Below, one piece after another: positions 2,229-35,428 of a stretch of DNA of 64,000 nucleotides; within the stretch, counting starts at the first letter, position 1, and each line of letters starts with the position of its first letter. Made by a program: the position numbers and the translations under genes. The notes beneath the pieces are model-generated. The model made no database searches, was not told the DNA's origin, and worked only from the letters and a program-made list of their open reading frames with translations. The DNA comes from an uncultured Candidatus Saccharibacteria bacterium (GTDB lineage: Bacteria; Patescibacteriota; Andersenbacteria; UBA10190), in the NCBI GenBank assembly GCA_964450915.1, contig CAYVFG010000001.1, positions 1,694 to 65,693 of the forward strand, read 5' to 3'.

Positions 2229-3353
2229 CTAAATTCCCGCACGTTTCGCCCGCAGCACTTCCTCCACCTCTCCCAGCGGCAGGCAGTTGATCACATCCTT
2301 CCGCGTGAGCCAGCCTTTGCGGGCGGCTTTGATGCCATAGATCACCGCCTGCAATCCGTGCGTGCTGTGGGCATCGGGGTTGATGCTGCATTTCACGCCT
2401 TTCGCTTTCGCGAGCTTCCACCAGCGCCAGTCCATGTCCAGACGCCACGCGCTGGCGTTGAGCTCGATGATGGTGCCGGTTTCCGCGGCGGCATCGATCA
2501 CGGCAGCCACGTTCACATTGTAAGCAGGGCGCTGCAGCAGCAGCCGTCCCGTGAGATGTCCCAGCATGGTGACGTGCGGATTCTCAATGGCTCGAATGAT
2601 GCGCTTCGTCATCTCCGCCTCGGGCAAATTGAAGACGTTGTGCACGGAGGCGACCACATAATCGAGCTGGCCCATAATCTCGTCACTGAAATCGAGGCTG
2701 CCATCCTTGAGAATGTCCACCTCGCTGCCGGCAAAGATGCGGAAGCCCTCTTCGGCCATCTCCTCATTCAGTGCCTTGATCTCTTCGATTTGTTTCAACA
2801 GTCGCTTCTCATCCAGCCCATTCGCCTGGAAAGACGACTTGCTGTGATCGGCGATGCCAAGGTACTGCAAACCCAGCTCATGCGCCGCCTCCGCCATCTC
2901 GCGCAAAGTCGCGCCACCATCGCTGGCGGTGGTGTGGTTGTGAAAGACACCGCGCAGATTCTCAAGCTGGATGAGGCGTGGCAGACCACCGTGCTCGGCG
3001 GCATCTATCTCGCCCGTGTTCTCCCGCAGCTCAGGATCGATGAAGTCGAGATCCAGCGCGCGGTAGAGTTCCGCTTCATCATGAACCGGTGGAATGACCG
3101 GCGCATCCGCATGATCCGGCACCGGCGTGAAGCCATACTCATTGAGCGACCAGCCACGAGCAAGCGCACGCTGGCGGATGGCCACATTGTGCTCCTTGCT
3201 GCCGGTGAAGTAGACCAGCGCAAAAGGGAACTCCTTGCTCGATACGGCACGCAGATCGCACTGCACCCCATGAGTGACGTGCACACTGGCTTTCGTCGGC
3301 CCTTTGGCGATGACATCCACCACCAGTGGCAGTTGCACAAAGGACTCGATTAC
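2229..3353 (-). pseudogene. DNA polymerase X family fragment (thumb + PHP phosphoesterase domain only); N-terminal 8-kDa/palm region missing; frame closes with a stop inside the first hairpin of the repeat island
   Basis: FALVYFTGSKEHNVAIRQRALARGWSLNEYGF (PolX thumb) followed by a PHP-domain histidine-rich region; no ATG start; in-frame stop at 3354-3356 coincides with hairpin 3354-3376. Confidence 0.55.
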
Positions 3354-3939
3354 CTAGTAAGATTTTTCACTTGCTCCGCGCCCCAGTCAAGACCAGCATG
3401 CTGGAGAAAACGCTACCTATCTTCACAGCATTTAACACCAGCAAGAACAAATTCCTGCTCACAACTCTACGGAACCATGCCATACGTTAGTTGACTCTAC
3501 TGAACTACGCGACGATACACTAGCAAAGTTTCTTGCTCGTAACTTCACACCGGCTTAGTGAGCTGGACGTTAGGTAGCGGTATGATACCAGCAAGAATTG
3601 CTTCCTGCTCTCCACAAAAGGCCAATCAAGTTTAGTTTAATCAAGTCCACTGAATTGTACTAAAGCACGCACCCTAGCAAGAAATAAATCTTGCTCACGA
3701 CATTATTGTAGCGAAGTATACAGCTCCTAATCGTAGGATACTGGACAATGCGATAACACCAGCAAAATTTCTTTGCTCTCTGCTTTAGTCTGCAAAGGGG
3801 AACAACGAATTACTGGAGTCCGCTCAAGTGTATACACTAGCAGAATTTTCATTCTGCTCGCCAAGCAGTACAGTCAACCTCAATTCAGGACAGGTTAAGC
3901 CACGGCAGCATGCCAACACCAGCAAACAGCTGTTTGCTC
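3354..3939 (-). repeat. Hairpin-unit array 1a: 8 units of conserved short stem-loop (AGCAAG-loop-CTTGCT) separated by ~50-65 nt of unique sequence; CRISPR-like but noncanonical
   Basis: Hairpins at 3354-3376, 3437-3460, 3519-3538, 3587-3610, 3674-3696, 3758-3778, 3836-3859, 3918-3939; loops differ; mismatches resolve to G-U pairs on the minus strand. Confidence 0.7.
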
Positions 3940-4050
3940 GCAACCACGCGAAACTATACGTGACTGAAACTCACGTAACGACACTGCACCGAACCTAATT
4001 GAATCAATTGTCAAACAACGATCAACATCCCCCTTTCTGCTGAATATCAG

Positions 4051-4088
4051 GAACGGATTAAAATAACATATTATCATATTTTTTGCAA
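4051..4088 (-). promoter_or_regulatory. Conserved AT-rich junction element, promoter-like (TTGCAA -35-like box directly abutting the upstream terminator T-tract), reading toward array 1a
   Basis: ggaacggattaaaataacatattatcatattttttgcaag; near-identical copies at 7378-7420 and 9606-9650. Confidence 0.4.
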
Positions 4089-4118
4089 GAAAAAAGCGAG
4101 AGTAATGAAACTCTCGCT
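4088..4118 (-). terminator. Intrinsic terminator (minus strand) closing array 1b / helicase transcription unit
   Basis: stem agcgagag...ctctcgct followed by a T-tract on the minus strand (A-tract 4088-4095 on plus). Confidence 0.6.
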
Positions 4119-4173
4119 GTGCACTGTTGTTAACTTCACAGGAGGAAGCAAAACAGCACTTTACTTAATGAAC

Positions 4174-4770
4174 ACTAGCAAGAATTTCATCCTGCCCTGG
4201 ACAATAGCCTAGCTAACTAAAGAACGCTGGAGCGAAGACTACTAAAGCTCAAATACCAGCAAAATTTCTTTTGCTCTATACTACACCAAGCAGCAAGGAA
4301 GTGTGCGTTAGTCTACCAGAGATCACGCTATTTTATAGAAGCGAGAATTCTAAAATTCCCGCCCTGGAACATAGGATAAGGTACTTGGCGGAAGCCCGGG
4401 ATACTCAGCCTAATTTAAACTAGCAAGTTTTCTTGCTCGTTATGCTACGTGAGCATACGTTAGTCCAGATTGCTTAAGTCTGCGACACTCCACTCCAATA
4501 CCAGCAAGAAATAAATCTTGCTCTACAGAAAGCATAAGAACAAATTACTGGAGCCAACAAGACTGGACACTATACACTGGCAAAATTTCTTTGCCCGAAA
4601 CGTTAGGCCAGCCTAATTAAGTCTAGCGAGCTACGACATACAGGACGACACTATGTACACTAGCAAAAAATCTTGCTCTTTACCGAAGAGAACTCCACAA
4701 AGCCCTGCGAGAGCCTACCTAACTTCAGTGTAAGATATAAGAGAAGCGAGGATGCAAGCATCCTCGCCCT
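4174..4770 (-). repeat. Hairpin-unit array 1b: 9 units; immediately downstream (minus strand) of the helicase gene
   Basis: Hairpins at 4174-4197, 4255-4276, 4339-4364, 4419-4438, 4500-4523, 4576-4596, 4658-4678, 4746-4767 (plus 4339 and 4746 long-stem gcgag variants); 4500-4523 identical to 9424-9447. Confidence 0.7.
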
Positions 4771-4815
4771 ACACTCGGCTTCGCTGCAATTCAGAGCAGG
4801 TCACCATACTTCACT

Positions 4816-6672
4816 TCATGTTCTCTGACTCAGCAAATCCTCTGCATCACGAATGCAGTTCTCAAACGGCAAGTCGCTTCGGTAGGATTTCTCCAACCAA
4901 GGAGGCAAAGCCCCCCACACAATCTTCTTGAATTGTTGCGAGATGAAGAATGTAACTCCAACATCTCGCGTACTTCGAACATTGCGTCCGCGCACTTGTA
5001 ACGCTTGCTGCATCACACGCCAATTCCACAGCGCCCACCTGGCACCACCGAACCGCTTCTCTTCGAACTGTGTTCCGGGATCCGTTGGTACAGGGTATCC
5101 GGGCCGCAGAAAGAAGATGATCGGTGCAGTCTGTTTTGGCAGATCAACACCCTCAGCGTAGTTGGAAGCAGTGCCTACCAAGCAGTCGCCTACCCCTTCC
5201 TTGAACTTGATTGCGGCTTGCTTTGCGGTAACGCCATTCCCGTAGCTGATCGCTTCAAGCTTCTCTTCTTTTGCAAGCTGAAGAAACTTGTCACGCTCAT
5301 CATTGGAGATGGTAACCACCAAGCTGCGATGCCCCTTGAGCGCAAATCGTTTTGCCGCACGAGCAATCTTTCGAATGCTTTGTGTCATGTCGCGCGCAGT
5401 CCGCGTGTTCATGGCAAGATTCGGCGTGTCCGTCGGCAAGTACAGCCTTGTATTTCCCGAAGGAAAGTTGGATTGCAACTGCAAGCACGGAAACCGAATC
5501 CCCGTTTCGTGTCCGAAGATTTCAGGATCACCGATCGTCGCAGAAAATGCGACAGTCAGCGGAGGCAGAATCTTTCGAATCAGCGGGGCCACATAATAGC
5601 ACCGCACCACGAGCTTGCACTCCACTAAGTCTCGCTCTCCTTTCTCGAACTTGTAGAAGGCACACGTGTAATTGAGCGGCTTTCGCTCTTCGGTCTCGAG
5701 CGAATACTCAAAAGAATGTGAATACCGGCGCAAATCTCGCACCAGTGTTTCCAATTTCTTGAGCGCCACTCGATCCTCTTTCGCGTCGATGGTTCCGTTT
5801 CTCACGGCCTTCTCAATACGCGAAAGAAGTTTTCCCGAATCCACGTCTTCCAAGATCACCATCAAGCGGCGAAGTTCTGCATCCGTAAGAAGTACTGGCT
5901 CGTCGAGTTTCCTCTTCTTGCAAATGTACTTCATGGAAGCAAGAAACTTTTCCAGCACTTCAACTTCCGGAGCATCTATCCGAGTCAGCAATTCGATAGA
6001 CCGTTCCAGATGGTAATCTGTAATGTCGTACGAAAGCGAACTGCGAACGATTTCCGCAATCCGATGCGCTTCATCAATCACGAGCGCGCCCGTTTCCGGG
6101 AACTCATGACTGAACAGTTGAGTGAACAAGTAGAACGACGTGGTGCAAACCACGACGCCCCCTTGCTTCGCTTCGAACTTCTGCTGAAGATACGGACAAG
6201 CAGTTGCCCCCGGCTCAAACGTTTCTCCTGTTGTTTGATCAACCCGGTGAGGGCATGCCTTCAACATCGAACACGGAACTTCGTCAGCTTTGATGGTTTT
6301 TGAATCCAACGTAAGCTGAACCAGCTCTTCGTCACCGATGACTGATTGCCCTTGGTAATACAAGCACGGATGCTCGCATCGCCCCAAGGCAATTTTTACG
6401 TCTGGAAACTCCTCCCTGATTTGCCCTACCAACGTTTTGTTGGGAGTGACAAAAAATGAGGTACCTCCATCGCGCTGCACCGATGCTTCAAGCCATGCTT
6501 TGGCAACTGCCGTTTTCCCTGAACCTGTCGGGGATTCAACGACCGCAGACCCGTTCTGGGCCAAAAATTCCATCATTTCATCTTGGCCTTTCCATGGGCC
6601 ATTTGCGTACCTTCCGCCTCGCGGAAAGCTAGCCTGCAATGCGTTCAGGCTAAGAGGGTTCTGATGTTTCAT
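4816..6672 (-). CDS. Rad3/XPD/DinG-like superfamily-2 helicase with Fe-S cysteine cluster between Walker A and B (Csf4/DinG-like)
   Basis: Walker A ESPTGSGKTAV, DEAH box VIDEAHRIAEI, Cys-rich insert (CEHPC, CSMLKACPH, ACPYL, VVVCTT) between them; start ATG at 6670-6672 (MKHQNP) with GAGAAGGAA RBS. Confidence 0.7.
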   Translation of the reverse strand: MKHQNPLSLNALQASFPRGGRYANGPWKGQDEMMEFLAQNGSAVVESPTGSGKTAVAKAWLEASVQRDGGTSFFVTPNKTLVGQIREEFPDVKIALGRCEHPCLYYQGQSVIGDEELVQLTLDSKTIKADEVPCSMLKACPHRVDQTTGETFEPGATACPYLQQKFEAKQGGVVVCTTSFYLFTQLFSHEFPETGALVIDEAHRIAEIVRSSLSYDITDYHLERSIELLTRIDAPEVEVLEKFLASMKYICKKRKLDEPVLLTDAELRRLMVILEDVDSGKLLSRIEKAVRNGTIDAKEDRVALKKLETLVRDLRRYSHSFEYSLETEERKPLNYTCAFYKFEKGERDLVECKLVVRCYYVAPLIRKILPPLTVAFSATIGDPEIFGHETGIRFPCLQLQSNFPSGNTRLYLPTDTPNLAMNTRTARDMTQSIRKIARAAKRFALKGHRSLVVTISNDERDKFLQLAKEEKLEAISYGNGVTAKQAAIKFKEGVGDCLVGTASNYAEGVDLPKQTAPIIFFLRPGYPVPTDPGTQFEEKRFGGARWALWNWRVMQQALQVRGRNVRSTRDVGVTFFISQQFKKIVWGALPPWLEKSYRSDLPFENCIRDAEDLLSQRT

Positions 6673-6758
6673 GACCTTGCGTTCCTTCTCATTAATCATC
6701 CAAATTGTCAAACAGCACTGTTCGCAGCGCCAAAAAAGGCACAAGCTACGAACTCATT

Positions 6759-6788
6759 TTTATAGCATATCTTACTATTTTTGTAAAG
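6759..6788 (-). promoter_or_regulatory. Sigma70-like promoter for the helicase gene (TTTACA-N18-TATAAA)
   Basis: -35 tgtaaa at 6783-6788 and -10 tttata at 6759-6764 read on the minus strand. Confidence 0.4.
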
Positions 6789-6798
6789 TATCTTTGGG

Positions 6799-6832
6799 TA
6801 AAAAAAGAAGCAGGCGTTTTGGAACACCTGCT
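6799..6832 (-). terminator. Intrinsic terminator (minus strand) closing array 2a
   Basis: agcaggcgttttggaacacctgct stem-loop followed by T-tract (A-tract 6799-6807 on plus). Confidence 0.6.
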
Positions 6833-6895
6833 CGGTAACTTGCTTCACTGTGCCTAAGTGGACATCAGGACAAAGAACAACGCCTCAGTGGATAT

Positions 6896-7321
6896 ACCAG
6901 CAAGAATAAACTTGCTCTAGACTACTCGGAAGAATACTTCACTCGAGGACAGGTTGCGCTACACCAGTGCATTACACTAGCAAGCCGAAGCTTACTCAAG
7001 ACTCAGGGGTACGCCAGATTAGGCTGCTTAGCGAAACCTCGCGCTAGGCCATAACACTGGCAAATCGCAATTTGCTCCCTACACGACATTAGTTTGCTTG
7101 GCTAGGGTCTACAGTGCAGAAACGCACTATACAAAATCAAAGAGTAGCAAGAATTATTTCTTGCTCTGGGGTGAAAAGGACCACAGGATACGGTAGTGAA
7201 CTGCGACAAACTAGAAACACCAGCAAGAATAAACTTGCTCTCCACACCTACACAACTTTGCAACAGTATGCGAGACGCCAAAGTACTGAGGAATAACACT
7301 AGCAAGAAGTTATTCTTACCC
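6896..7321 (-). repeat. Hairpin-unit array 2a: 6 units
   Basis: Hairpins 6896-6917, 6976-6997, 7056-7077, 7143-7166, 7219-7240, 7298-7321. Confidence 0.7.
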
Positions 7322-7377
7322 TACAAAAAATGGCAATCTAGACTACTCGACCCAAGCCCACGGAATTTAATGAGTTG

Positions 7378-7455
7378 TTAAAGAACAAACTAAAATAACA
7401 CAAGATTATATATTTTGCAAGTAAAAAAAGAAGCAGGCGTTTAGAAACACCTGCT
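7378..7455 (-). terminator. Terminator (7423-7455) plus conserved promoter-like junction element (7378-7420) separating arrays 2b and 2a
   Basis: agcaggcgtttagaaacacctgct + T-tract, then TTGCAA and AT-rich box; near-identical to 9606-9685. Confidence 0.55.
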
Positions 7456-7510
7456 ACGCACGGAGCGCGAATTAACTCTACGTCAGAACGCTGTAGTTAA
7501 CTTCATTACC

Positions 7511-7783
7511 CTAGCAAGGAAGAAACCCTGCTCATAACCGTACTTACAAGACACTTAAGCAGGCAGCTGTATACTGCAGAGCGCATAACTACATACACTA
7601 GCAAGAAATGAATCTTGCTCTGCACGTTGCTTTGCTGCTGAATAATGGACTGCAGATAGCTGCACCTAACCGCGCATACCGGCAAGAATGCTCTTGCCCG
7701 CCACCCTAACCAACTGCTCAGCAATGGAGAGGACCCCAGTTTACCTTACTCAGAAGTAACAATGGCAAAGCGATCCCTTGCTC
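7511..7783 (-). repeat. Hairpin-unit array 2b: 4 units; begins 18 bp after the stop of the 211-aa RAMP-like gene (likely co-transcribed)
   Basis: Hairpins 7511-7533, 7597-7620, 7678-7699, 7761-7783. Confidence 0.65.
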
Positions 7784-7800
7784 GAACCTGAACGAGACAA

Positions 7801-8436
7801 TTACGAAGTTTGTTCGTTCCATTCACGAACCCGAAATGCTCCATACGGCCCCTTCTTATTGGGACGATACAATCCTAGCCCTTGACCTTGTCCAGCCATC
7901 TGAAACAATCGAACAAGTTTTTCACGAAGTATCATGTTGTGATCATACGAAATGTTGATCACGAATCCCCACTGGTCAAACCGGGGATATGAAGTGTAGA
8001 CCAATCCTCGGTGTCTCGATGTTTGAGGTGATATGTGACGTACGTGGCATACCCAATCGGGCTCTCGTTCGTCATGCCCGTTGGAAAGAACCGTGAATTC
8101 ATCTTCGAAACGAATGACCTCACTGATAATGTCTTCCGCGCTTCTGCAGCATCTAAGCGAGTTCTGACAACGAAGCGCAGCAACTACTGCCCCGCAAAGC
8201 ATTGAATTTGGTATCGCCACTTTACCCGCCGGATTCCGATAGATGCATGCTGCGGCACGATCTCTAAAAGATTCTCTTTTGATGACACTCATCACTTCTT
8301 CGGAAAATTTGTTCATGATGAGCGGACTTGTACCGATGCAGGCAATGGCAACTGAGCGCATGTCTGCTTCAGGATCTGCGACTCGACCAATCAGTATGCG
8401 GTCATTTACGATTACCATACGACGAATCTTCCCCAT
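7801..8436 (-). CDS. RAMP-like protein (Cas5/Cas6-like size, C-terminal glycine-rich loop), 211 aa
   Basis: C-terminal AGQGQGLGLYRPNKKGPYGAFRV glycine-rich loop; internal IPNSMLCGAVVAALR motif; paralogous to 11550-12206 and 10440-11348; GAGGAA RBS. Confidence 0.45.
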   Translation of the reverse strand: MGKIRRMVIVNDRILIGRVADPEADMRSVAIACIGTSPLIMNKFSEEVMSVIKRESFRDRAAACIYRNPAGKVAIPNSMLCGAVVAALRCQNSLRCCRSAEDIISEVIRFEDEFTVLSNGHDEREPDWVCHVRHISPQTSRHRGLVYTSYPRFDQWGFVINISYDHNMILREKLVRLFQMAGQGQGLGLYRPNKKGPYGAFRVREWNEQTS

Positions 8437-8543
8437 TATTTATTCCTCAAATTGGAACAGAACAATCAAAAAATCATCCAATAGAATCATCTATTGGAAC
8501 ATGATAATTTAGCATAATATTGAAATAAAGTCAAAATTTACGC

Positions 8544-8575
8544 AAAAAAAGAAGCAGGCATATAAAACACCTGCT
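8544..8575 (-). terminator. Intrinsic terminator (minus strand) closing array 3
   Basis: agcaggcatataaaacacctgct + T-tract (A-tract 8544-8550 on plus). Confidence 0.55.
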
Positions 8576-8628
8576 CTAAAAGAAGCTACAGTGAACCTGG
8601 CTAGAATCTACGCTAGGACACGCAAATA

Positions 8629-9532
8629 CACTAGCAAGGGAACCCCTGCTCTGTGCCGTATTGAACCGCACGTTAGTTTACGCTGCGAGACCAAACGGCA
8701 ATACCAGCAAGACTAAACTTGCTCTCCCAGGACACAGTAATCTAGGTTACTGTACTACGCTCAAGTGATCTCTACAGAACAGAATAATACTAACAAGAAT
8801 GACAACACTCTTGCTCGATACGGCACCCTAGGAAACGTAACTCAACCCTAGAGTAGCGCTGACACAAGCAAAAACTTGCTCTCAACGAAACCTTTGTTCG
8901 CCTAACACCAGCCAACCGAGGGACACTGGGCATCAGAACACGCCAGTGCAAACAATAGCAAGATTTTTCTTGCTCGACACCAAAGGTGACGGGACTGAAC
9001 TACAGGCCAGAAAACTATATACACTAGCAGGAAGAGCCCTGCCCATAACTGCTGTGCGCACTAGTTGACGGGAACACACGTAACCCTGGGGGACCTAATA
9101 CACTAGCAAATCGGAACTTGCCCAACACCTTAGCCGGCATTAACACACTAAACGCAAGCCTAGCGGAACTAAGACAGAAGCAAGCAACGCTTGCTGATTA
9201 CTAAGGCGAAGAAAACTCTGCTCAAGTCAAGGACTCTCAACTCAAGTCTACCTAAAATACTAGCAAGGAAATTCTTGCTCAGCATGACACACTACCGCTC
9301 AGCACAACAGACTTCTGAAGAAAGCTACAGGCTAGAGAAGATTAATACTAGCAAGAAAACTTGCTCATCACTTCAGAAAGGAAAACGTTGCGAAAGTAGA
9401 CTGTGCGTTACTCTGGGTAATACACCAGCAAGAAATAAATCTTGCTCGCTAGCGGAGCGTATAATAGCGAACTCAAGAAAACCTGGCGGGGCTGCACTCC
9501 ACTTCAACACTAGTAAGAAAGGCTTCTTGCTC
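8629..9532 (-). repeat. Hairpin-unit array 3: 12 units
   Basis: Hairpins 8629-8651, 8703-8724, 8789-8816, 8864-8883, 8954-8975, 9023-9044, 9102-9123, 9177-9197, 9259-9280, 9347-9366, 9424-9447, 9509-9532. Confidence 0.7.
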
Positions 9533-9605
9533 TTTAGTACACTCGAAAATGGGCCACGAAACTAGGCAAGAGCAAACCTAAGTTCACTACACGTACTTCT
9601 TAAGT

Positions 9606-9685
9606 TGTTAAAGAACGAATTAAAATAACACAAGATTATATTTTTTGCAAGTAAAAAAAGAAGCAGGCGTTTGGAAACACCTGCT
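9606..9685 (-). terminator. Terminator (9653-9685) plus conserved promoter-like junction element (9606-9650) between arrays 4 and 3
   Basis: agcaggcgtttggaaacacctgct + T-tract; TTGCAA abuts the T-tract; AT-rich box follows. Confidence 0.55.
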
Positions 9686-9732
9686 CGAGACTGAGCCTAA
9701 GCCCACTAGAGAGCACGTAACATCACGTGAAT

Positions 9733-10305
9733 ACTAGCAAGAGACTTCTTGCTGCGCGCCAAAGATAACGACAAGAAAGAACACGATACTACGCCAGACG
9801 AACATACACCAGCAAGTCGAAACCTGCCCCAAACGCCACCGTGACATACAATATCGTACGACACTCAAACAAGCTATACTGAATCCAGCAAACCAGCAGA
9901 ACTATTTCTGCCCTCGACAAAACGGCGCCGTAGACGACTTGAATATAGGGTACTGTGCTAAACCAAATACACTAGCAAGGCTTGGCCCTGCTCCTCACGA
10001 AAGACGAGATTACCCCAGCAGACTCAACTTTAGAGTGCAGTGCGATAACACAAGCAAGAAAATTCTTGCTCTCGAGAACGGGGTGCTTTACGCCGGGGTA
10101 CGTAAGCCGACGCCAGGGTAACTTATAACACAAGCGAGCAACTTCTCGCTCTGCACCAAACCAAACTGGAATGTAGGTAACAGTGTCGTAGCGCAGAATA
10201 TCACACAAGCAAGAATAAACTTGCTCACCACTATAGCGGACCGTGCCAGGCATGAGTCCAGTCGACGTGACGAGAGCACATTATAATAGCAAGAGAGTCT
10301 TGCTC
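9733..10305 (-). repeat. Hairpin-unit array 4: 8 units
   Basis: Hairpins 9733-9754, 9808-9829, 9892-9913, 9971-9993, 10049-10073, 10129-10151, 10204-10226, 10287-10305. Confidence 0.7.
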
Positions 10306-10365
10306 ACAAACAATAGTCGAACGGACCGGAACAAACTGCACTAAAGCACGCTTGACGTTAATAAA

Positions 10366-10398
10366 GAAGCGGGCAATTCAGATGAATCACCCGCTTTG
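10366..10398 (-). terminator. Probable terminator after the 312-aa RAMP-like gene
   Basis: aagcgggcaattcagatgaatcacccgctt stem-loop with weak T-tract on the minus strand. Confidence 0.4.
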
Positions 10399-10439
10399 GA
10401 CTGCGCTGCAAAGCAGGTTAGTCAACAGCAGAACAGTAT

Positions 10440-11348
10440 TTACACCAGCGAGATGCCGTATGCCTGCTTGGCAAATGATGTTTGTCGAGGAGTGGAAAAT
10501 CTCCCACCCGACCGAACAAATGGTTCATCAAGCTTTTCGTACGTCACCCGCTCACCAGGTACCAAGAACTGCCGAAGTGGGCGCTTCGGAGCGTCTCGCC
10601 ATCCGACGCGCGCCGTAATCCGCTGATCACCCACGTAGGTGATGATCGTGCCGACACCTCGAGCTTGGTAGAAACTTTCCACCACGCCTTCGTTGTCTTG
10701 AAGATCATGCGGAACTTGCAACTCAGGCTCCTCCACATACTCCGCTCCCGAAGGAATGACGAGTTCTGGACGAACAAGTTGTTCCATCAACATCCAGTCT
10801 GCCAACAAATTGTTGAACGACTGGTGCCGTTCGAGCCGCGGAAATGTTGGTCCGTCTCGATCAACGCATTGCAATCGATCATAGGCAAGTTGAACGGTGA
10901 GAAAGAAGTTGCCGCCTTGCGAGACGACCGCCACCTTCCACACGTTCATAAGATTCGTAGGCGAGCTCCCGTTCAAGACAAGCCCTGCAATGCAGAGCAT
11001 GTTGTTGGGGTAGCTCACGAACGATTCGCCTTGGCCATCGGTGCTGGCTTCGACCGGCATCTTAATGCCGTACACCTTCGATCCAGAAGGAAGTCCGCGA
11101 GCGGCTACTGCCGCTTGCATCTCCTTCTGAAATGGCTTTTTGGGCTCGCCAGGCGCAGCCCAGTCTCGCTGAAGCCTGCACTCGTCGCTGCCTTGTCGGA
11201 TAAATCCGAAGCAAGGAACGCCGGGGTCAACCGTGGCATCCAACACGACATGCCCAGAATAGAGCTTGCCCATGGACCCGTCTTCCGCAACGTCGATCAA
11301 TCGACCTTGCTTGTAGACATTCAGCGTAACACCAGGAATCCGAATCAT
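10440..11348 (-). CDS. RAMP-like protein, ~303 aa (Cas7-like size), paralogous motif to the two ~215-aa proteins
   Basis: YPNNMLCIAGLVLNG motif shared with IPNSMLCGAVVAAL / LPAQMLIAALVTAG; upstream TTGACA-N17-TACAAA promoter; fully antisense ORF 10482-11375 judged to be a shadow. Confidence 0.4.
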   Translation of the reverse strand: MIRIPGVTLNVYKQGRLIDVAEDGSMGKLYSGHVVLDATVDPGVPCFGFIRQGSDECRLQRDWAAPGEPKKPFQKEMQAAVAARGLPSGSKVYGIKMPVEASTDGQGESFVSYPNNMLCIAGLVLNGSSPTNLMNVWKVAVVSQGGNFFLTVQLAYDRLQCVDRDGPTFPRLERHQSFNNLLADWMLMEQLVRPELVIPSGAEYVEEPELQVPHDLQDNEGVVESFYQARGVGTIITYVGDQRITARVGWRDAPKRPLRQFLVPGERVTYEKLDEPFVRSGGRFSTPRQTSFAKQAYGISLV

Positions 11349-11425
11349 GATTCCAACCCTTCTTTTGCAAATTGACAACGATCAACCACACAATCTCGAA
11401 AGGCACTCCCAATCGAGAACATTGC

Positions 11426-11454
11426 TTTGTAGCATGACTTGCATAAAATGTCAA
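11426..11454 (-). promoter_or_regulatory. Sigma70-like promoter (TTGACA-N17-TACAAA) for the 312-aa gene, directly abutting the upstream terminator
   Basis: tgtcaa 11449-11454 and tttgta 11426-11431 on plus. Confidence 0.45.
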
Positions 11455-11488
11455 GAAAAAAAGAAGCGAGAGTAATGAAACTCTCGCT
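11455..11488 (-). terminator. Intrinsic terminator after the 218-aa RAMP-like gene (same hairpin family as 4088-4118)
   Basis: agcgagagtaatgaaactctcgct + T-tract on the minus strand. Confidence 0.6.
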
Positions 11489-11549
11489 ATTTACTTCTCC
11501 TAACGTTGAATTGGGAACAGATAGACGTTTCAAGACACGTCCGAACGAA

Positions 11550-12206
11550 CTAAGCCGCCGCTTTGCCTTCTTCCTTTCCGTCGACCACGATCTTGATGGT
11601 GTTGTCGGATGAAGCGACAGCGTCGTCGTTCCATTCGATGACCCGGAACATTCCGTACGGCCCCTTCTTGTTCGGGCGGAACGATCCGAGTCCCTGGCTG
11701 GTACCGGCGTTGGCGAACAGCTTGAGAACCGAGTCGCGTCCGGCGATCTTTTCGTCGTACGTGAGCTCAACTTCGAACGCCCATTCGTCGCATCGCGGAC
11801 GGACGACGCACACAGCCACGGGACTCGCCGAAGCATTGCTGACGCCTCGCCTGCTGTCGGGAACCCATGTCGGCTCCTTCCCATCCCGACCGTTCGTGAG
11901 GTACAGGTGCTGGCTCGTCACCGTCAAGAAGTCGAACAAAGTCGTGGTCTGCGCTGTCGAGACCTGCTTCTTGCCGAGCTTGACATTGCGACCAGCGGTC
12001 ACCAACGCTGCGATCAGCATCTGTGCCGGCAGGGCGAGCTTACCATCCTTGTCGGTGTAGACCTTTTCCTTGGCCTTTTCCTCTTGAGGACGATCCTTCT
12101 GGAGTTGGAGCCGAACGCCGGTATCGAGGCTTTTGAGCACCTCTTCCGACATCCGATCCATCAACAAAGGGCTGATCCCCACGCACACGCATCGAACTTT
12201 TCGCAT
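11550..12206 (-). CDS. RAMP-like protein (Cas5/Cas6-like size, C-terminal glycine-rich loop), 218 aa
   Basis: AGTSQGLGSFRPNKKGPYGMFRVIEWND loop nearly identical to the 211-aa paralog; LPAQMLIAALVTAGR motif; GGAG RBS. Confidence 0.45.
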   Translation of the reverse strand: MRKVRCVCVGISPLLMDRMSEEVLKSLDTGVRLQLQKDRPQEEKAKEKVYTDKDGKLALPAQMLIAALVTAGRNVKLGKKQVSTAQTTTLFDFLTVTSQHLYLTNGRDGKEPTWVPDSRRGVSNASASPVAVCVVRPRCDEWAFEVELTYDEKIAGRDSVLKLFANAGTSQGLGSFRPNKKGPYGMFRVIEWNDDAVASSDNTIKIVVDGKEEGKAAA

Positions 12207-12303
12207 GGCTGAACTCCAATTCTTCTATTGTAAAGACACGAAACGATTGTTCCATCAAGACCTTTTCTTGCGGAACAAATGACCCTAGCATAATGATAAA
12301 ATC

Positions 12304-12352
12304 TTGTCAATAGCAAAAGAAAAAGACCCCGATGCCACGTGGCAAAGGGGTC
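12304..12352 (-). terminator. Terminator (gacccc...ggggtc + T-tract) with abutting TTGACA -35 box; marks the upstream boundary of the island operons
   Basis: Same terminator-then-promoter architecture as the internal junctions. Confidence 0.45.
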
Positions 12353-12377
12353 AGGGCAAATTCACCCTAAAACATTA

Positions 12378-30506: not shown

Positions 30507-31847
30507 CTAAACGATTCGAATATTTACCCTGTCTTTAGCGACACAGATCGAATTATTTATAGCATAGCATTCGACATAAGATCTGCTCGGAAATGCAGTG
30601 CTCTCTATACCATTTTTCGTACCGCCTTTAGTAATTTCACCTCTTGGATCTTTAGAATTATCACTATTCTTAACCTTCCACCAATAATCATCTGCTCCGG
30701 TTTCATTATTTCTGATAGAAAATCTTATTTTTCGTGTCCTATGACCGCCCGAGGAAACGCCATTTTTTCTTAAAAGAGGCGTTGCTTTTAACCAGCCATG
30801 CAAGAAGCCGCTAAGGGGGTGAACATTCCCATCAATTTTAAATACCAGGCCCTGATCAATCAGAGTTTTGATTTTAAAATCGAATAGATATTCTTCCGAT
30901 GCTATTCTTGAAGTAAAATCAATTTCCATTAGTTTTTCTATCGAACCTTCTTCGCTGAGTCGCTCTAGCTTGATTAGAAAATTATCCCTCGCTGTTTTGA
31001 TTTTTTCCTTCTGAACCTCCGTTAGCTTGTCTAGATAGTCATCAATAAATTTATCGCTATTTGCACGGTCATGAATTTGGTTAGGCTTATTTATTATATC
31101 CGGCAATTCAACAAAAAATTTAAAAATGGCATCAAATATCTCTAGATTATTGTTCTCTTGGAAAAATATTGTGACAATTTGCTCAAGATGAAATGACTTT
31201 AGTTTGAGCTCATTATCCATGTCTTCCAAATTATTTTTCCATTTTTTGACAATCTTGGAAGTTTTTCTAAATTCTCCGCTGGTAGCATTATCTATTTCCG
31301 AAGCCACTTTAATATATCCCCTAGGATCAGATGTAATCCATCCCATATCGCCATGCTGCTGCGAAAGCTTCTCATAATACATAGTACGGTTTTTATGTTT
31401 TTCCTGAATCACTTCCGGCACCTTATATACATCTTCACTAAATTCATTTTTTGAGAAAATATAAACAGGAACAATATCAACAGAGAATACCTCCTCGCTA
31501 CTCTCAAAATATGCAACAGTTACAGAGTGGGTTTGTAGCTGCACTTTAATCTTATAATCAGTAGGGTTGCTATAGTCGCTTTCAATTTTATCCCGCAATT
31601 CTTCTAAAGAGTCTAATGGATTATGAATATTTTCATCCCAATTTCCCAAAAAATACAGGATATCAAGGTCCTGTACATGGGTAATAGCTGTAAATCGCGG
31701 ATACGATCCAATTTGGATACAATTATTATCCCCTAGCAAATCCTGAAAAGATTCGTAGATCTCCTTAATTTGTTCCCGCTCACCCTCCTTCGGAGATAGC
31801 GTTCGTGCGTAACTCCGTAACTTTTCGTTAAACTTATCTTTTTTCAT
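30507..31847 (-). CDS. Minimal nucleotidyltransferase, SMODS/CD-NTase-like (446 aa) with uncharacterised C-terminal region
   Basis: IGSYPRFTAITHVQDLDILYFL (GS...DxD NTase motif) and downstream FSVDIVP third acidic residue; AT-rich. Confidence 0.5.
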   Translation of the reverse strand: MKKDKFNEKLRSYARTLSPKEGEREQIKEIYESFQDLLGDNNCIQIGSYPRFTAITHVQDLDILYFLGNWDENIHNPLDSLEELRDKIESDYSNPTDYKIKVQLQTHSVTVAYFESSEEVFSVDIVPVYIFSKNEFSEDVYKVPEVIQEKHKNRTMYYEKLSQQHGDMGWITSDPRGYIKVASEIDNATSGEFRKTSKIVKKWKNNLEDMDNELKLKSFHLEQIVTIFFQENNNLEIFDAIFKFFVELPDIINKPNQIHDRANSDKFIDDYLDKLTEVQKEKIKTARDNFLIKLERLSEEGSIEKLMEIDFTSRIASEEYLFDFKIKTLIDQGLVFKIDGNVHPLSGFLHGWLKATPLLRKNGVSSGGHRTRKIRFSIRNNETGADDYWWKVKNSDNSKDPRGEITKGGTKNGIESTAFPSRSYVECYAINNSICVAKDRVNIRIV

Positions 31848-32391
31848 AACTCGTGGTGATCATTGATATCATGATGTCGTTAAGTAATCGGCCACGAAAA
31901 TTACTAAGGATCACATTGCGTATTTCGTTAATTTTTTTGATCTCAGTAATAGGGATTGATCCAAGCTCTTGAGGAGCATATATAATAAGTGCTGTCTGGT
32001 CGTTTTTCTGCCTTAAAATATCGTCTATTGAATCAGCCCAATCATGCCAAAATATTAAAAAAAGTGTAGCTTTTTCAGCACGACCAATATCACGCCTATC
32101 CATTATTTCAATAATATTCTTATCACTAAACAGTTCCGAATCTAAGAGCATATTCTTTAAATGTGGAAGGTTTTCACCTTTTGCAAAAACTGCAATTTTC
32201 CTCCTAGCAAGACCATTTCCTAACCTAAGCAACGCTGGCCATATGCCTATAGCCCAAGTAATTACTCCAGCTACCACAGTAATCAGGACAACAAGCGTAC
32301 TTAGTCTCCCCAACCAATCAATTACTGTTAAAAAATCCATAATTACAATATTAGAATGAAAAGTAGAACGTGTAAATACGTTCTTGTGCAC
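31834..32391 (-). CDS. 2TM membrane protein with C-terminal Rossmann/TIR/SLOG-like domain, translationally coupled to the NTase (putative effector)
   Basis: Two N-terminal TM helices (LVVLITVVAGVITWAIGIWPALL); alternating beta-strand/helix pattern IAVFAKG...ATLFLIFW...ALIIYAP; 14-nt overlap with downstream NTase. Confidence 0.4.
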   Translation of the reverse strand: MHKNVFTRSTFHSNIVIMDFLTVIDWLGRLSTLVVLITVVAGVITWAIGIWPALLRLGNGLARRKIAVFAKGENLPHLKNMLLDSELFSDKNIIEIMDRRDIGRAEKATLFLIFWHDWADSIDDILRQKNDQTALIIYAPQELGSIPITEIKKINEIRNVILSNFRGRLLNDIMISMITTSYEKR

Positions 32392-32417
32392 ATCTTATCC
32401 ACAGGTATAATGAAAAT

Positions 32418-33038
32418 ATGTCCAAACTATTACCAAAGCTTCATCCGACGCAAAAAAAAATTCTTGATCTCTTAAAAGAGCATTCTGATAATCCCCTTAC
32501 GATGATTGAGCTCAAAGACTTGGTCGGAGCCTCCTCTACGAGTGTAATTCATCACCACATATTACGCTTAGAGAAGAAGGGGTACTTGAGACGCAACCCA
32601 TCAAATCCTAGAGACTACAGAATTCTTACAGATTCCCCAGATAACTATATGGCATATATTAATTTGTATGGCCTCGCACAGTGCGGTCCTAACGGATCGC
32701 TTCTGGAAGGAGATCCTGTTGATCGTATTAAGATGGAGTCTCGAATGTTAGGTTTTCCATCCGAAGAAGCGTTCATGGTACAGGCTAAGGGTAACTCGAT
32801 GGCACCTCACATTAAGTCTGGAAATTTAGTAATTGCACAAAAGACACAAGACTTTAGTAGGCTAAATGGGAAAGTAGTTGTTTGTGTTAATGATGGAAAA
32901 GCGCTGATTAAAAAAATGACAATTCAAAATCAAGAAATATTACTATCTTCGTTTAATGAAAAATATCATCCATTTGCCGCGGCGGATGATTTTCGAGTGG
33001 AAGGACTAGTTCGCGGAGTCCTGTCGAGATCGTTCTAG
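32418..33038 (+). CDS. LexA-like repressor (N-terminal winged HTH + C-terminal S24 peptidase domain)
   Basis: GNSMAPHIKSGNLVIAQ (Ser nucleophile) ... VVVCVNDGKALIKKM (Lys general base); divergent from the NTase operon. Confidence 0.7.
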   Translation: MSKLLPKLHPTQKKILDLLKEHSDNPLTMIELKDLVGASSTSVIHHHILRLEKKGYLRRNPSNPRDYRILTDSPDNYMAYINLYGLAQCGPNGSLLEGDPVDRIKMESRMLGFPSEEAFMVQAKGNSMAPHIKSGNLVIAQKTQDFSRLNGKVVVCVNDGKALIKKMTIQNQEILLSSFNEKYHPFAAADDFRVEGLVRGVLSRSF

Positions 33039-33091
33039 TCCGAACTATTCTTTTTGGTCAAAAATAATCAATCTTCTGATTTAGCAATTCG

Positions 33092-35428
33092 TTAAAGTAA
33101 TTCCATGAAATCAACCCAGGAGGTATTATCATTTACTTCAAAACCATCCACAGATTCGTTATCGCATTTCCAAATACCGCCTATGTTTGCCACGATGCCA
33201 CCGACAATGTTTTTACCTTGCTTGTTCCATTTTTGTATGTAGGCATACAGGCCCTTTGATTTGTCGATTGTTTCAAATGATTCCACAGTCTGTTTTTTCT
33301 TTGTATCAAATAATCCGATGCGCCCATCTTTGAACTGGACTATAAAATCAACATAAAATGCATCTACGGTATGCGTGCTTCTATTCTCGTACGGCACTGC
33401 AAAATGCTCGCTTCCGTGATCGCCATTCTTATACCACCATGCAATTTTTTCGCTATTTGCTTCTAGGAAGTCCATGAAAGCCGTTTCGTTGATTCTGCCA
33501 GTGTATTCTTTGCGAATATAGCAGGGGGCCATAGCAGCGAGCTTGTACTGCTCTAAGGCCTCGTATTCGTCCGTATAGGATAATTGATCTGGTACATTCC
33601 ATAGCCTTCCTGCTTGGCTCATAGCAAACTGTTGTTTTGCTTCTATTTCTTCACGTCGAACCGGACCATATACAGCAAGTGCCTTGTCGATTATATGCCT
33701 CAATTCACTCTTCTCTTTTTTTGCCATGTCATTGACGAGGATTTTATATATCTCGTAGCTGTCGCTATCAACAATGCTTTTGATCCATACGCGCAACGCT
33801 GATTTGAGCGTGCCCCATGATCGTTCAGGAGCATATTTTTTGCCGTTATCTTCTTGTATCGTTAATATCTCATAGCAATATAAGTTGAACAGTTTTTCTA
33901 AGTCATTGTGCGATATTTCGTGCTCCAATTCTTTATCGCTTTTGCGTATCTCTTTAATAAAATCGTCATACACTTTAATTTCTGCATCTACGATCAAGCG
34001 ATTGTTCAGCTTAAAGTTTTTCAGCTCAAATTTCTTTTTTACCTTAGCAAGTTTTGCAGTGAGAATATCGGAGCCTGTTATGCCGAGTTCGCTGTCTGCG
34101 ACTTCTGCAAAAGTAGTTTGAAACGATGCACCCAGGTCGCCATAGTCTGTACGGCTCAAATAGATTGATTCTAGATCAATATTTTCGACGCCTTTTCTCT
34201 TATTACTTATCAGACTAGTAGCTTTATTTTTTGTGCCTTCCGGTAGCTTGATTTCGTTCTTCTTATAGTTCGTATACAGATAAGCGATGTTGATTAAAGG
34301 CTGTGTTGCATAATGATATCCACGAGGCATACGCAATATACGGCCTACGGTTTGCTCGTGAAAAATAGGACTTTTCACTTCTCGAAACATGACGAGTATG
34401 CTGGCTCGTGGGCAATCCCAGCCGGTAGCTGCCGCTTGTTTAAATATCAAAAATTGCACACTTGATCGATTACTTTCAACGGCTTCAAGATTCTCTTTTT
34501 CTTTTGATAGCCAAACTGCAATCTCATTTTCTTTCACGCCTTTTTGCTTTAGGTATCTTTTTACAGTTTCAAGTTTGCTTTCAGTCTCAACGTCTTTCTT
34601 CTCTGATTCGTCACTAGGAAGCTGGATCAATACAAGCGGGTTTATGTCCTCGTCGATTTCTTGGTATGCGCGTAAAAGCTCGAGACGTTTATTGTACGCC
34701 ATTTCAAGCAACATTCTGTCTTGGTCATCTTCCGTTACTTTTGCAAAGTCTTCTTTTGTTTGTACGACAATTTTTTCTTTGATCAATCCTTGCTCAATAA
34801 CGTCTTCGTGTCGAACGTATACATATCCGGCCTTGCCGTCGTCTTCATCTTCTCGGCTTGGTACGTTTATCGGGGTAGCTGTTACGTGAACGATAATGCG
34901 AGGGCTTATAAGTTCAACCAAGTCATCTGCGAGCGTTGTGCTTGCGTCTCTGTGTGCCTCGTCAATAAGCAATACGATTTCTCGGCCATCTTCTTGGGTA
35001 TTGCGTATAAATTCATCAAATGTCGTGTTTTGTTCGCCTTCTCTGCGTAGTAAGCGGTTTTCTTTACTTGTCGATTTTAGTTTTTGCCAGTTGATAAAGA
35101 ATATCTCGTTTTTCTTCAACTTCTTTTCCTTCAAATCGTTCAAGTCTGTTAACTGTAATTCGCTTGCACCGCCATAATACTCGAAAAACTTTTTCTTGCT
35201 TTGTTCATATGATTCTTCACTGAAACTAACCCATACATATGCTCGGTCCGCATCAAATTGAGGATCATTTACAAGATCACGCAAGAAATGTGCCATCACT
35301 ACAGTCTTTCCACTACCTGTAGGAGCTTTAAACGTAAGCGGTAATTGTTTGTTGCCGGTTTCCCATAGAGTAAGAAACTTCTTTCGTAATTCGGTAATCG
35401 CTGTTTGTTGGAATGGCTTTAGTTTCAT
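33092..35428 (-). CDS. Type III restriction enzyme Res subunit (SF2 helicase/endonuclease)
   Basis: APTGSGKT Walker A, LIDEAHR DEAH box, helicase C motifs; 4-nt overlap with the upstream mod gene. Confidence 0.8.
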   Translation of the reverse strand: MKLKPFQQTAITELRKKFLTLWETGNKQLPLTFKAPTGSGKTVVMAHFLRDLVNDPQFDADRAYVWVSFSEESYEQSKKKFFEYYGGASELQLTDLNDLKEKKLKKNEIFFINWQKLKSTSKENRLLRREGEQNTTFDEFIRNTQEDGREIVLLIDEAHRDASTTLADDLVELISPRIIVHVTATPINVPSREDEDDGKAGYVYVRHEDVIEQGLIKEKIVVQTKEDFAKVTEDDQDRMLLEMAYNKRLELLRAYQEIDEDINPLVLIQLPSDESEKKDVETESKLETVKRYLKQKGVKENEIAVWLSKEKENLEAVESNRSSVQFLIFKQAAATGWDCPRASILVMFREVKSPIFHEQTVGRILRMPRGYHYATQPLINIAYLYTNYKKNEIKLPEGTKNKATSLISNKRKGVENIDLESIYLSRTDYGDLGASFQTTFAEVADSELGITGSDILTAKLAKVKKKFELKNFKLNNRLIVDAEIKVYDDFIKEIRKSDKELEHEISHNDLEKLFNLYCYEILTIQEDNGKKYAPERSWGTLKSALRVWIKSIVDSDSYEIYKILVNDMAKKEKSELRHIIDKALAVYGPVRREEIEAKQQFAMSQAGRLWNVPDQLSYTDEYEALEQYKLAAMAPCYIRKEYTGRINETAFMDFLEANSEKIAWWYKNGDHGSEHFAVPYENRSTHTVDAFYVDFIVQFKDGRIGLFDTKKKQTVESFETIDKSKGLYAYIQKWNKQGKNIVGGIVANIGGIWKCDNESVDGFEVNDNTSWVDFMELL

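Follow-up and report, generated by a model that had tools for sequence, protein, structure and literature searches.

Which kind of RNA-guided system interleaves a DinG-like helicase and small proteins of the repeat-associated mysterious protein (RAMP) type with dozens of short hairpins? The question is raised by an island of about 9 kb in the genome of an uncultured Candidatus Saccharibacteria bacterium (Andersenbacteria, UBA10190, in the GTDB lineage; assembly GCA_964450915.1), which lies in a stretch of 64,000 nucleotides of contig CAYVFG010000001.1 (positions 1,694 to 65,693, forward strand) that was analysed as a whole and is called the window here. Four protein genes (within 3355-12310) and six noncoding arrays (spanning 3355-10305) alternate in it, all on the minus strand. 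A first reading of the letters alone, made without database searches (the sequence-only reading), had placed the four open reading frames (ORFs) correctly and had proposed either a highly derived variant of CRISPR-Cas (short palindromic repeats, clustered and regularly interspaced, with their associated proteins) or a new hairpin-guide RNA system. The arrays do look like guide RNAs, the system is neither canonical CRISPR nor a generic repetitive extragenic palindromic (REP) element, and that much of the proposal stands; the novelty does not, as this type of system has already been described. The island is very probably a helicase-associated VIPR (Viral Interference Programmable Repeat) system with a YNNNG variant of the repeat.

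VIPR is a CRISPR-related mode of RNA-guided DNA recognition first described in 2026 (bioRxiv 10.64898/2026.04.26.720920 and.720927). According to these preprints, the protein Vipr is an ancestral RAMP of ~20 kDa, and its guide, the vrRNA, is a run of 9-16 YNNGG pentamers that ends in a structured 3' tail. Double-stranded DNA is read by means of the NN dinucleotides, one base being skipped each time, in an R-loop triplex. Among the seven types distinguished, III-V have accessory genes for nucleases or helicases, the nuclease types being III and V only; by elimination, a helicase-associated VIPR would therefore be type IV. NNNGG, YNNNG and NNNNG are given as alternative vrRNA repeats, YNNNG by name in the methods. 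Beyond the VIPR preprints, the literature searched yielded no account of an architecture like this. The island is assigned to VIPR because it combines Vipr homology, pentamer-coded RNAs, a structured 3' tail and an accessory helicase with the lack of a CRISPR array and of adaptation genes.

The pentamer code lies in the segments of ~55 nt between successive hairpins. The sequence-only reading had called these segments unique, but they consist of tandem pentamers of the form 5'-Y-N-N-N-(G/C)-3'. The 44 measured tracts hold 9-15 pentamers each, mostly 11-13, and in most of them the pattern extends over 50-55 nt; among 526 pentamers, Y comes first in 88% and G or C last in 79%. Base identity is 0.34-0.36 at lags 5, 10, 15 and 20 against 0.21-0.26 at all others, and the autocorrelation at lags 5/10/15 (0.351, null 0.257, z = 19) was reached by 0 of 1000 within-segment shuffles. 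The coding regions give no such 5-nt signal. When the tracts are right-aligned on the hairpin that follows them, the logo shows Y as T (72%) or C (20%) and the last position as G (55%) or C (28%), with the three positions between them near-uniform. Segment lengths are not multiples of five, and the choice of anchor is telling: counted from the downstream hairpin, each pentamer contributes 1.29 bits to the register, against 0.26 from the upstream one. The register is thus locked to the downstream hairpin, so that each tract belongs with the hairpin 3' of it, and the hairpin is the structured 3' tail, or cap, of each guide RNA. This overturns the earlier interpretation of the hairpin as a Cas6-type 5' repeat with its handle.

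The hairpins themselves are confined to the island. The motif GAGCAAG-N(2-12)-CTTGCT occurs exactly 15 times, on the minus strand only and within 3676-10305, where chance would give 0.01; a looser search yields ~48-50 hairpins spaced 73-93 nt apart, in good agreement with the 47 units in six minus-strand arrays of the sequence-only reading. None was found in the remaining 55 kb of the window or on the plus strand. Alignment of 42 hairpins with RNAalifold gives a stem of 7 bp with compensatory changes in five of the seven pairs. The element is a plain stem-loop directly 3' of every pentamer tract, lacking the pseudoknot of the SUSP1 type, and a conserved RGTRT motif follows it. Tandem Repeats Finder (TRF) detected no tandem direct-repeat array of the CRISPR type; the sequence-only reading had remarked that canonical repeats and classical cas1/cas2 are missing. 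Neither Rfam at gathering thresholds nor ARAGORN had a match anywhere in the window, and a megablast search with the island turned up nothing among 50,697 phage records.

What proteins would read such a code? Pfam, PADLOC and NCBIfam hold no family for either of the two ~215-residue proteins (A and C, encoded by vipr-1 and vipr-2), which in PHROGs match phrog_4652, a family of unknown function. A profile built from 27 family members and run against the PDB with hmmsearch has a single solved structure as its match, 36pp_D ('SUSP1 Vipr protein'), aligned from position 1 to position 195 of 205 with E = 5e-14. The fold check that the sequence-only reading had proposed came out in favour of a RAMP: the AlphaFold2 model of Vipr-1 has a mean predicted local distance difference test (pLDDT) score of 88.5, and its top Foldseek matches in the PDB are Cmr4, Csm3 and type VII Cas7 (probability 1.0, template-modelling score ~0.5), while Cas7 models do not match the Vipr proteins by sequence and identity to Cas7 is 10-17%. 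Among viral models the nearest are three phage proteins of ~200 residues, one of them annotated 'RAMP superfamily protein'. By profile match and predicted fold, then, the two proteins are Vipr homologues and RAMPs with a Cas7-like fold. Both end in the glycine-rich loop G-L-G-x-[FY]-R-P...G-P-[YF]-G-x-F-R-V (GLGSFRP in Vipr-1, GLGLYRP in Vipr-2), which had been noticed at the outset together with an xPxxML motif said to link them to the 302-residue protein. Both motifs are present, but the xPxxML link does not amount to detectable homology.

The alignment to SUSP1 Vipr also bears on why the repeat is relaxed. In the SUSP1 structure, with the pentamer numbered G1, G2, Y3, N4, N5, G1 is read by H17 and D177, G2 by R138 and W178, and Y3 sits in a pocket with R179 (bioRxiv 10.64898/2026.04.26.720920 and.720927). 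The hidden Markov model alignment to 36pp_D and the family alignment place conserved equivalents at R138 and R179 and an F or Y at W178, whereas H17 is replaced by D and D177 by S or L. With both G1-reading residues exchanged (H17 to D, D177 to S), the first pentamer position would be free here, while the G2 and Y3 contacts appear to be kept. The logo, with Y and G2 preserved and a degenerate G1, matches this pattern of residues.

The third class of evidence is the helicase. Its translation contains a Walker A motif (GSGKT), a DEAH box and cysteines between them; Pfam finds Helicase_C_2, DEAD and DEAD_2, the best match in the defence library is the full-length PADLOC typeIV_DinG model PDLC01439 (3e-41), and the PDB sequence matches are to XPD only (1e-4). 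By these matches it is an XPD/DinG-family superfamily 2 (SF2) enzyme, as had been read from the letters. In the corresponding DNA of one related locus, L005, four matching cysteines are apparently encoded (judged by eye, without an alignment). The further step of seeing a type IV effector-like module in the gene content fails, however: against NCBIfam TIGR03117 (cas_csf4) the helicase reaches 16.5 bits where the cut-off is 400, and apart from DinG/Cas3-type helicase models no Cas profile in Pfam, PADLOC or NCBIfam matches any of the four island proteins, the Cas5, Cas6, Csf and Cas1/2 profiles included; outside the island the window was covered in part. With tblastn no relative of the helicase was found on 72,556 plasmids, and phages gave remote Rad3-like matches only.

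The fourth protein, of 302 residues (protein B), had been counted as a third RAMP. It has seven homologues only and a weak OB/S1-like fold; Pfam, PADLOC and NCBIfam offer no family for it either, and aligning its profile to that of the Vipr family with hhalign gives no significant match (probability 0.5%). Because of this last result it is probably not a third RAMP, and it is better regarded as an accessory protein that probably binds nucleic acid. Two of the three RAMP-like proteins of the sequence-only reading have therefore held up, and one has not.

The recurrence of the gene set beside hairpin arrays, put forward earlier as something to seek in other genomes, is borne out. Homologues of protein A were collected with their flanking sequence. 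For every Vipr with at least 38% identity to Vipr-1 and enough flank, the same helicase lies within ~4 kb, in ten loci (L004, L005, L007/L012, L008, L009, L010, L011, L013, L014 and L015), mostly metagenome-assembled genomes of Andersenbacteria, Parcubacteria, Paceibacterota and other Patescibacteria; more distant Viprs stand without a helicase. Vipr, helicase and periodic arrays co-occur in at least ten loci besides the window, in genomes that are unrelated, and L009 has the complete set of A, B, C and helicase, with a vipr-2 counterpart 42% identical. In L005 the hairpin reads GGGCAGG...CCTGCC, yet the pentamer logo is alike (G 62%, T 63%), so that the hairpin covaries between loci. Tracts of 5-nt periodicity adjoin vipr in nearly all loci, including those of the cultured phages LESphi2, Gordonia Ecliptus and Mycobacterium LittleE. 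A profile search of the whole library returned 7,448 clusters at 50% identity (E <= 1e-3), which suggests that the Vipr family is larger than reported. In the three cultured phages the homologues, Pseudomonas LESphi2 gp9, Gordonia Ecliptus gp19 and Mycobacterium LittleE gp34, are annotated 'hypothetical protein' and occupy moron-like positions, each with noncoding tracts of strong 5-nt periodicity at its side (L001 5501-5950, L002 6526-6850, and L003 5601-5900 and 7101-7500). These three are apparently unannotated VIPR loci.

One of these relatives, L004, is syntenic with the island, its proteins being 73-88% and its genes 78-82% identical at the DNA level, and nevertheless only 4-5 of ~48 guides are recognisably common to both. 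Three guides that are adjacent in L004 (11887-12190) sit in three different arrays of the window (arrays 2, 1 and 4, at 9349-9280, 9973-9913 and 7058-6997), from which it follows that units move between arrays. No orthologous guide is detectable between the window and L009, where the helicase is 79% identical. Guides thus appear to turn over and to be shuffled between arrays much faster than the proteins diverge.

The few shared guides suggest which bases are held most constant. Over 40 orthologous pentamers of the window and L004, N4 changed four times, N5 six, Y3 eight (chiefly exchanges between C and T), G2 eleven and N1 fifteen, and the difference between N4+N5 (10/80) and N1+G2 gives a Fisher p of 0.004 from four hand-aligned guide pairs. 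One guide, at 7058-6997, has all nine of its internal NN pairs in common with its L004 counterpart despite changes at N1 and G2 between them. This conservation of N4 and N5 fits the published NN code and speaks against a code of three bases. Position 1 was also considered as a third specificity base (NNN) and rejected: it is the least conserved position, and neither NNN nor NNNx decoding gave a self-match above the null.

The arrays are laid out as transcription units, as the sequence-only reading had it when it described terminators abutting the next promoter. At the array ends stands a longer, strong hairpin with a T-run, in register with the unit hairpins, and directly past the terminators comes a near-identical promoter-leader cassette with a promoter-like element, TTGCAA-17-TATTTT, read from the sequence. 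Two genes were also rightly described as running into arrays: the guide tract past the helicase gene begins right at its stop codon, and a hairpin lies 18 nt downstream of the vipr-2 stop codon. The promoter of array 1 is uncertain: TTGTGA-18-TATAAT at 10309-10280 could serve it, or else transcription that reads through from the upstream gene. The terminator-promoter-leader cassette recurs between arrays in the window (9686-9600, 7455-7372, 4118-4040) and in L004 (12405-12493, 16413-16540), and its identity between the two, 88-92%, lies above that of the protein-coding genes. Putative promoters of the four protein genes, recognised by eye only (12310-12282, 11457-11428, 8534-8506, 6796-6765), have a -35 element like TTGAC(A/T) or TTTACA and a -10 region containing ATGCTA, in place of the TTGCAA-17-TATTTT of the arrays.

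Table 1. Genes and guide arrays of the island, in window coordinates
Feature	Position	Strand	Description
vipr-1 (protein A)	11550..12206	-	218-aa Vipr protein, a minimal RAMP with a single RRM
candidate vap (protein B)	10440..11348	-	302 aa counted from ATG; OB/S1/cold-shock-like domain, not a RAMP
vipr-2 (protein C)	7801..8436	-	211-aa Vipr paralogue, 37% identical to vipr-1; phrog_4652 match at 2.7e-14
candidate vap effector helicase	4816..6672	-	618 aa, XPD/DinG-family SF2
vrRNA array 1	9661..10305	-	8 guides of 10-13 YNNNG pentamers each plus hairpin cap; last hairpin (9685-9662) also the intrinsic terminator
vrRNA array 2	8552..9651	-	own promoter TTGCAA-17-TATTTT at ~9651-9622; ~13 guides; terminator 8576-8552
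vrRNA array 3	7432..7800	-	in the 3' untranslated region of vipr-2; 4-5 guides; terminator 7455-7432
vrRNA array 4	6808..7421	-	own promoter; 7 guides; terminator 6833-6808
vrRNA array 5	4095..4815	-	begins at the helicase stop codon; 9 guides; terminator 4118-4095
vrRNA array 6	3355..4090	-	own promoter; leader guide plus 7 guides; last hairpin (3375-3355) abuts the 5'-truncated polX

How far do these parts resemble systems already known? With VIPR at large the island shares a ~20-kDa single-RRM RAMP with G-loop and thumb, guides of 9-16 tandem pentamers with a structured 3' tail in arrays that flank the vipr gene, and a minimal locus with long noncoding flanks and a gene for an accessory DNA-acting enzyme, without cas1/cas2 or CRISPR repeats. 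In the characterised VIPR systems (SUSP1 and P. fulva, type II), which are encoded by phages, the repeat is GGY/NN, the tail forms a pseudoknot, a locus has 1-4 vrRNAs and the Vap binds DNA; in the island, by contrast, G1 appears free with its reading residues replaced, the tail is a plain hairpin, the location is chromosomal, and ~48 guides in six transcription units accompany two Vipr paralogues, a helicase and an OB-fold protein. Type IV-A CRISPR-Cas (the Csf complex with CasDinG/Csf4) likewise joins a RAMP backbone on a guide RNA to an XPD/DinG-family helicase and has no nuclease and no adaptation genes at the locus, but the island lacks Csf1, Csf3, Cas6 and a CRISPR array, and its guide code is non-contiguous. 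Its helicase also departs from Csf4 in failing the curated model, in having no relatives in the plasmid search and in its cysteines between Walker A and DEAH, whereas CasDinG has only a vestigial Fe-S domain; type IV CRISPR systems reside mostly on plasmids. From the Cas7 proteins of Class 1 (Csm3, Cmr4, type VII) Vipr has the fold and the glycine-rich loop (GxGxxR...GxFxV) and, probably, the periodic, thumb-interrupted filament on RNA; unlike them it has a period of 5 nt, not 6, sequesters guide bases where they flip one base out, works without a large or small subunit and shares little sequence. The Nop-domain Tas system also employs array-encoded guide RNAs that are not CRISPR, compact effectors and no protospacer-adjacent motif, but its effector is unrelated and its guide units have dual spacers, not a pentamer code, and nothing in the island matches it.

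By analogy with the SUSP1 and P. fulva work, Vipr-1 and Vipr-2 would polymerise along a vrRNA with one protomer per pentamer, each protomer hiding the G-Y bases and presenting the two bases after Y. The presented NN would pair with double-stranded DNA, every third target base being skipped, to give an R-loop triplex; filament and skip rule are thus both carried over from type II. The helicase might then be recruited to the bound target as effector, in the manner of CasDinG in type IV-A CRISPR or of Cas3 in type I, and the system would protect the host chromosome from phages or other mobile elements; in this last part of the scheme both the role of the helicase and the defence function are inferred.

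Several points weigh against the VIPR identification and the scheme built on it. The pentamer is YNNNG where the characterised one is YNNGG, so that the one-nucleotide skip is an extrapolation when applied to YNNNG, and the expression and processing of the vrRNAs and their binding by Vipr are predictions here. The assignment to type IV has the text of the preprint as its single source, and what the helicase contributes is entirely inferred. The ortholog test consists of four guide pairs, picked by overall similarity and aligned by hand. Targets, too, have stayed out of sight. Decoded NNx patterns of six guides had no match in IMG/VR by exact matching, and one metagenome scan returned a single noncoding site, at about the chance rate, on two near-identical contigs. 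As a target, L032 1729-1757 / L033 1940-1968 was rejected as chance: the site lies outside every ORF of 80 aa or more, and the pentamer that follows mismatches. This absence of exact target matches is weak negative evidence.

Could the arrays nevertheless be CRISPR in disguise, a highly derived type IV system with a degenerate Cas6-type repeat, contiguous spacers, Csf2/Csf3-like proteins and a CasDinG? The full-length match of the helicase to the type IV DinG model, the Cas7-like fold of the small proteins and a hairpin whose trailing RGTRT resembles a Cas6 product are what such a system would offer, but the segments carry a 5-nt code whose register is set by the downstream hairpin, the repeats are conserved in structure only, with no identical direct repeats found by TRF, and the sequence match is to a solved Vipr and to no Cas7 model. 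Add the missing profile matches to Cas1/2, Csf1, Csf3, Csf5 and Cas6, the low Csf4 score and the empty plasmid search, and this explanation becomes very unlikely. Hardly any credence is left for the arrays being generic REP-like, satellite or small-RNA repeats functionally unrelated to their neighbour genes, to which they bear a superficial likeness in their short hairpins, variable loops and lack of a long identical repeat: neither the plus strand nor the other 55 kb of the window contains the motif, the arrays have promoters and terminators of their own, vipr, helicase and periodic arrays recur in at least ten loci with different but covarying hairpins, and the pentamer code agrees with known Vipr binding.

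A subtler alternative accepts the VIPR machine but gives it another task, such as host gene regulation or the silencing of chromosomal loci or resident elements. According to the preprint, type II VIPR silences transcription and has resident prophages among its possible targets; the island is chromosomal with no prophage genes adjoining it; and the exact IMG/VR scans with six guides yielded no viral target. On the other hand, none of the guides outdoes its shuffled controls in matching the 64-kb window, whichever of five decoding rules is applied, the preprint reports self-targeting for none of the types it examined, and the near-complete turnover of guides at 73-88% protein identity is what would be expected of targets in an arms race, not of housekeeping. 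A purpose other than defence is therefore given a small probability, and the helicase-associated VIPR system of the opening paragraph is retained as a candidate defence system.

The surroundings of the island are those of a bacterial chromosome, with genes for an autotransporter, a PolX fragment, BipA, a DEAD-box helicase and a MacB/HlyD pump, and with a CBASS-like (cyclic-oligonucleotide-based antiphage signalling) cyclase and a type III restriction-modification system. The cyclase (30507-31847) combines SMODS with an AGS-C sensor domain, and the restriction-modification pair consists of a res-like helicase (33092-35428) and an N6/N4 methylase (35425-37101). Together they form a separate defence island (30507-37101) of low G+C content (35-42%), ~18 kb from the VIPR locus. 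At the other edge, the polX ORF (2229-3338, minus strand) starts 17 nt past the last hairpin of array 6. It retains the thumb and PHP domains only, with the first Pfam match from residue 40 of 369, and lacks ~200 N-terminal polymerase residues. L004 has other genes on this side of the island, and for that reason the truncation of polX is probably due to a rearrangement or insertion.

The finding belongs to a described family: the island is an unusually large helicase-associated VIPR, neither a new kind of system nor a CRISPR variant. A wider reading, tentative and rather doubtful as it stands, would make the helicase type of VIPR a chromosomal immune library whose dozens of guides are renewed, and its pairing of a RAMP filament with a DinG-like helicase perhaps an evolutionary bridge from VIPR to type IV or class 1 CRISPR-Cas; it is compatible with the mere 4-5 of ~48 guides shared with L004, by their scatter over different arrays and by the concentration of the clade in Patescibacteria. 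Renewal may proceed by shuffling of cassettes via the conserved hairpins, together with some way of writing a five-for-three code that goes beyond simple integration of target DNA. VIPR had been characterised before only in phage-borne type II systems with a DNA-binding Vap, and this locus offers a well-resolved natural example of the helicase-associated kind, with its ~48 guides, two divergent Vipr paralogues and OB-fold protein, in which the relaxed YNNNG code can be explained by the substituted residues, the very two that contact G1 in the cryo-electron microscopy structure. It bears on whether the one-nucleotide skip rule extends to YNNNG, on what a DinG-like helicase would add to a silencing filament, and on how large guide repertoires may be turned over without Cas1-Cas2.

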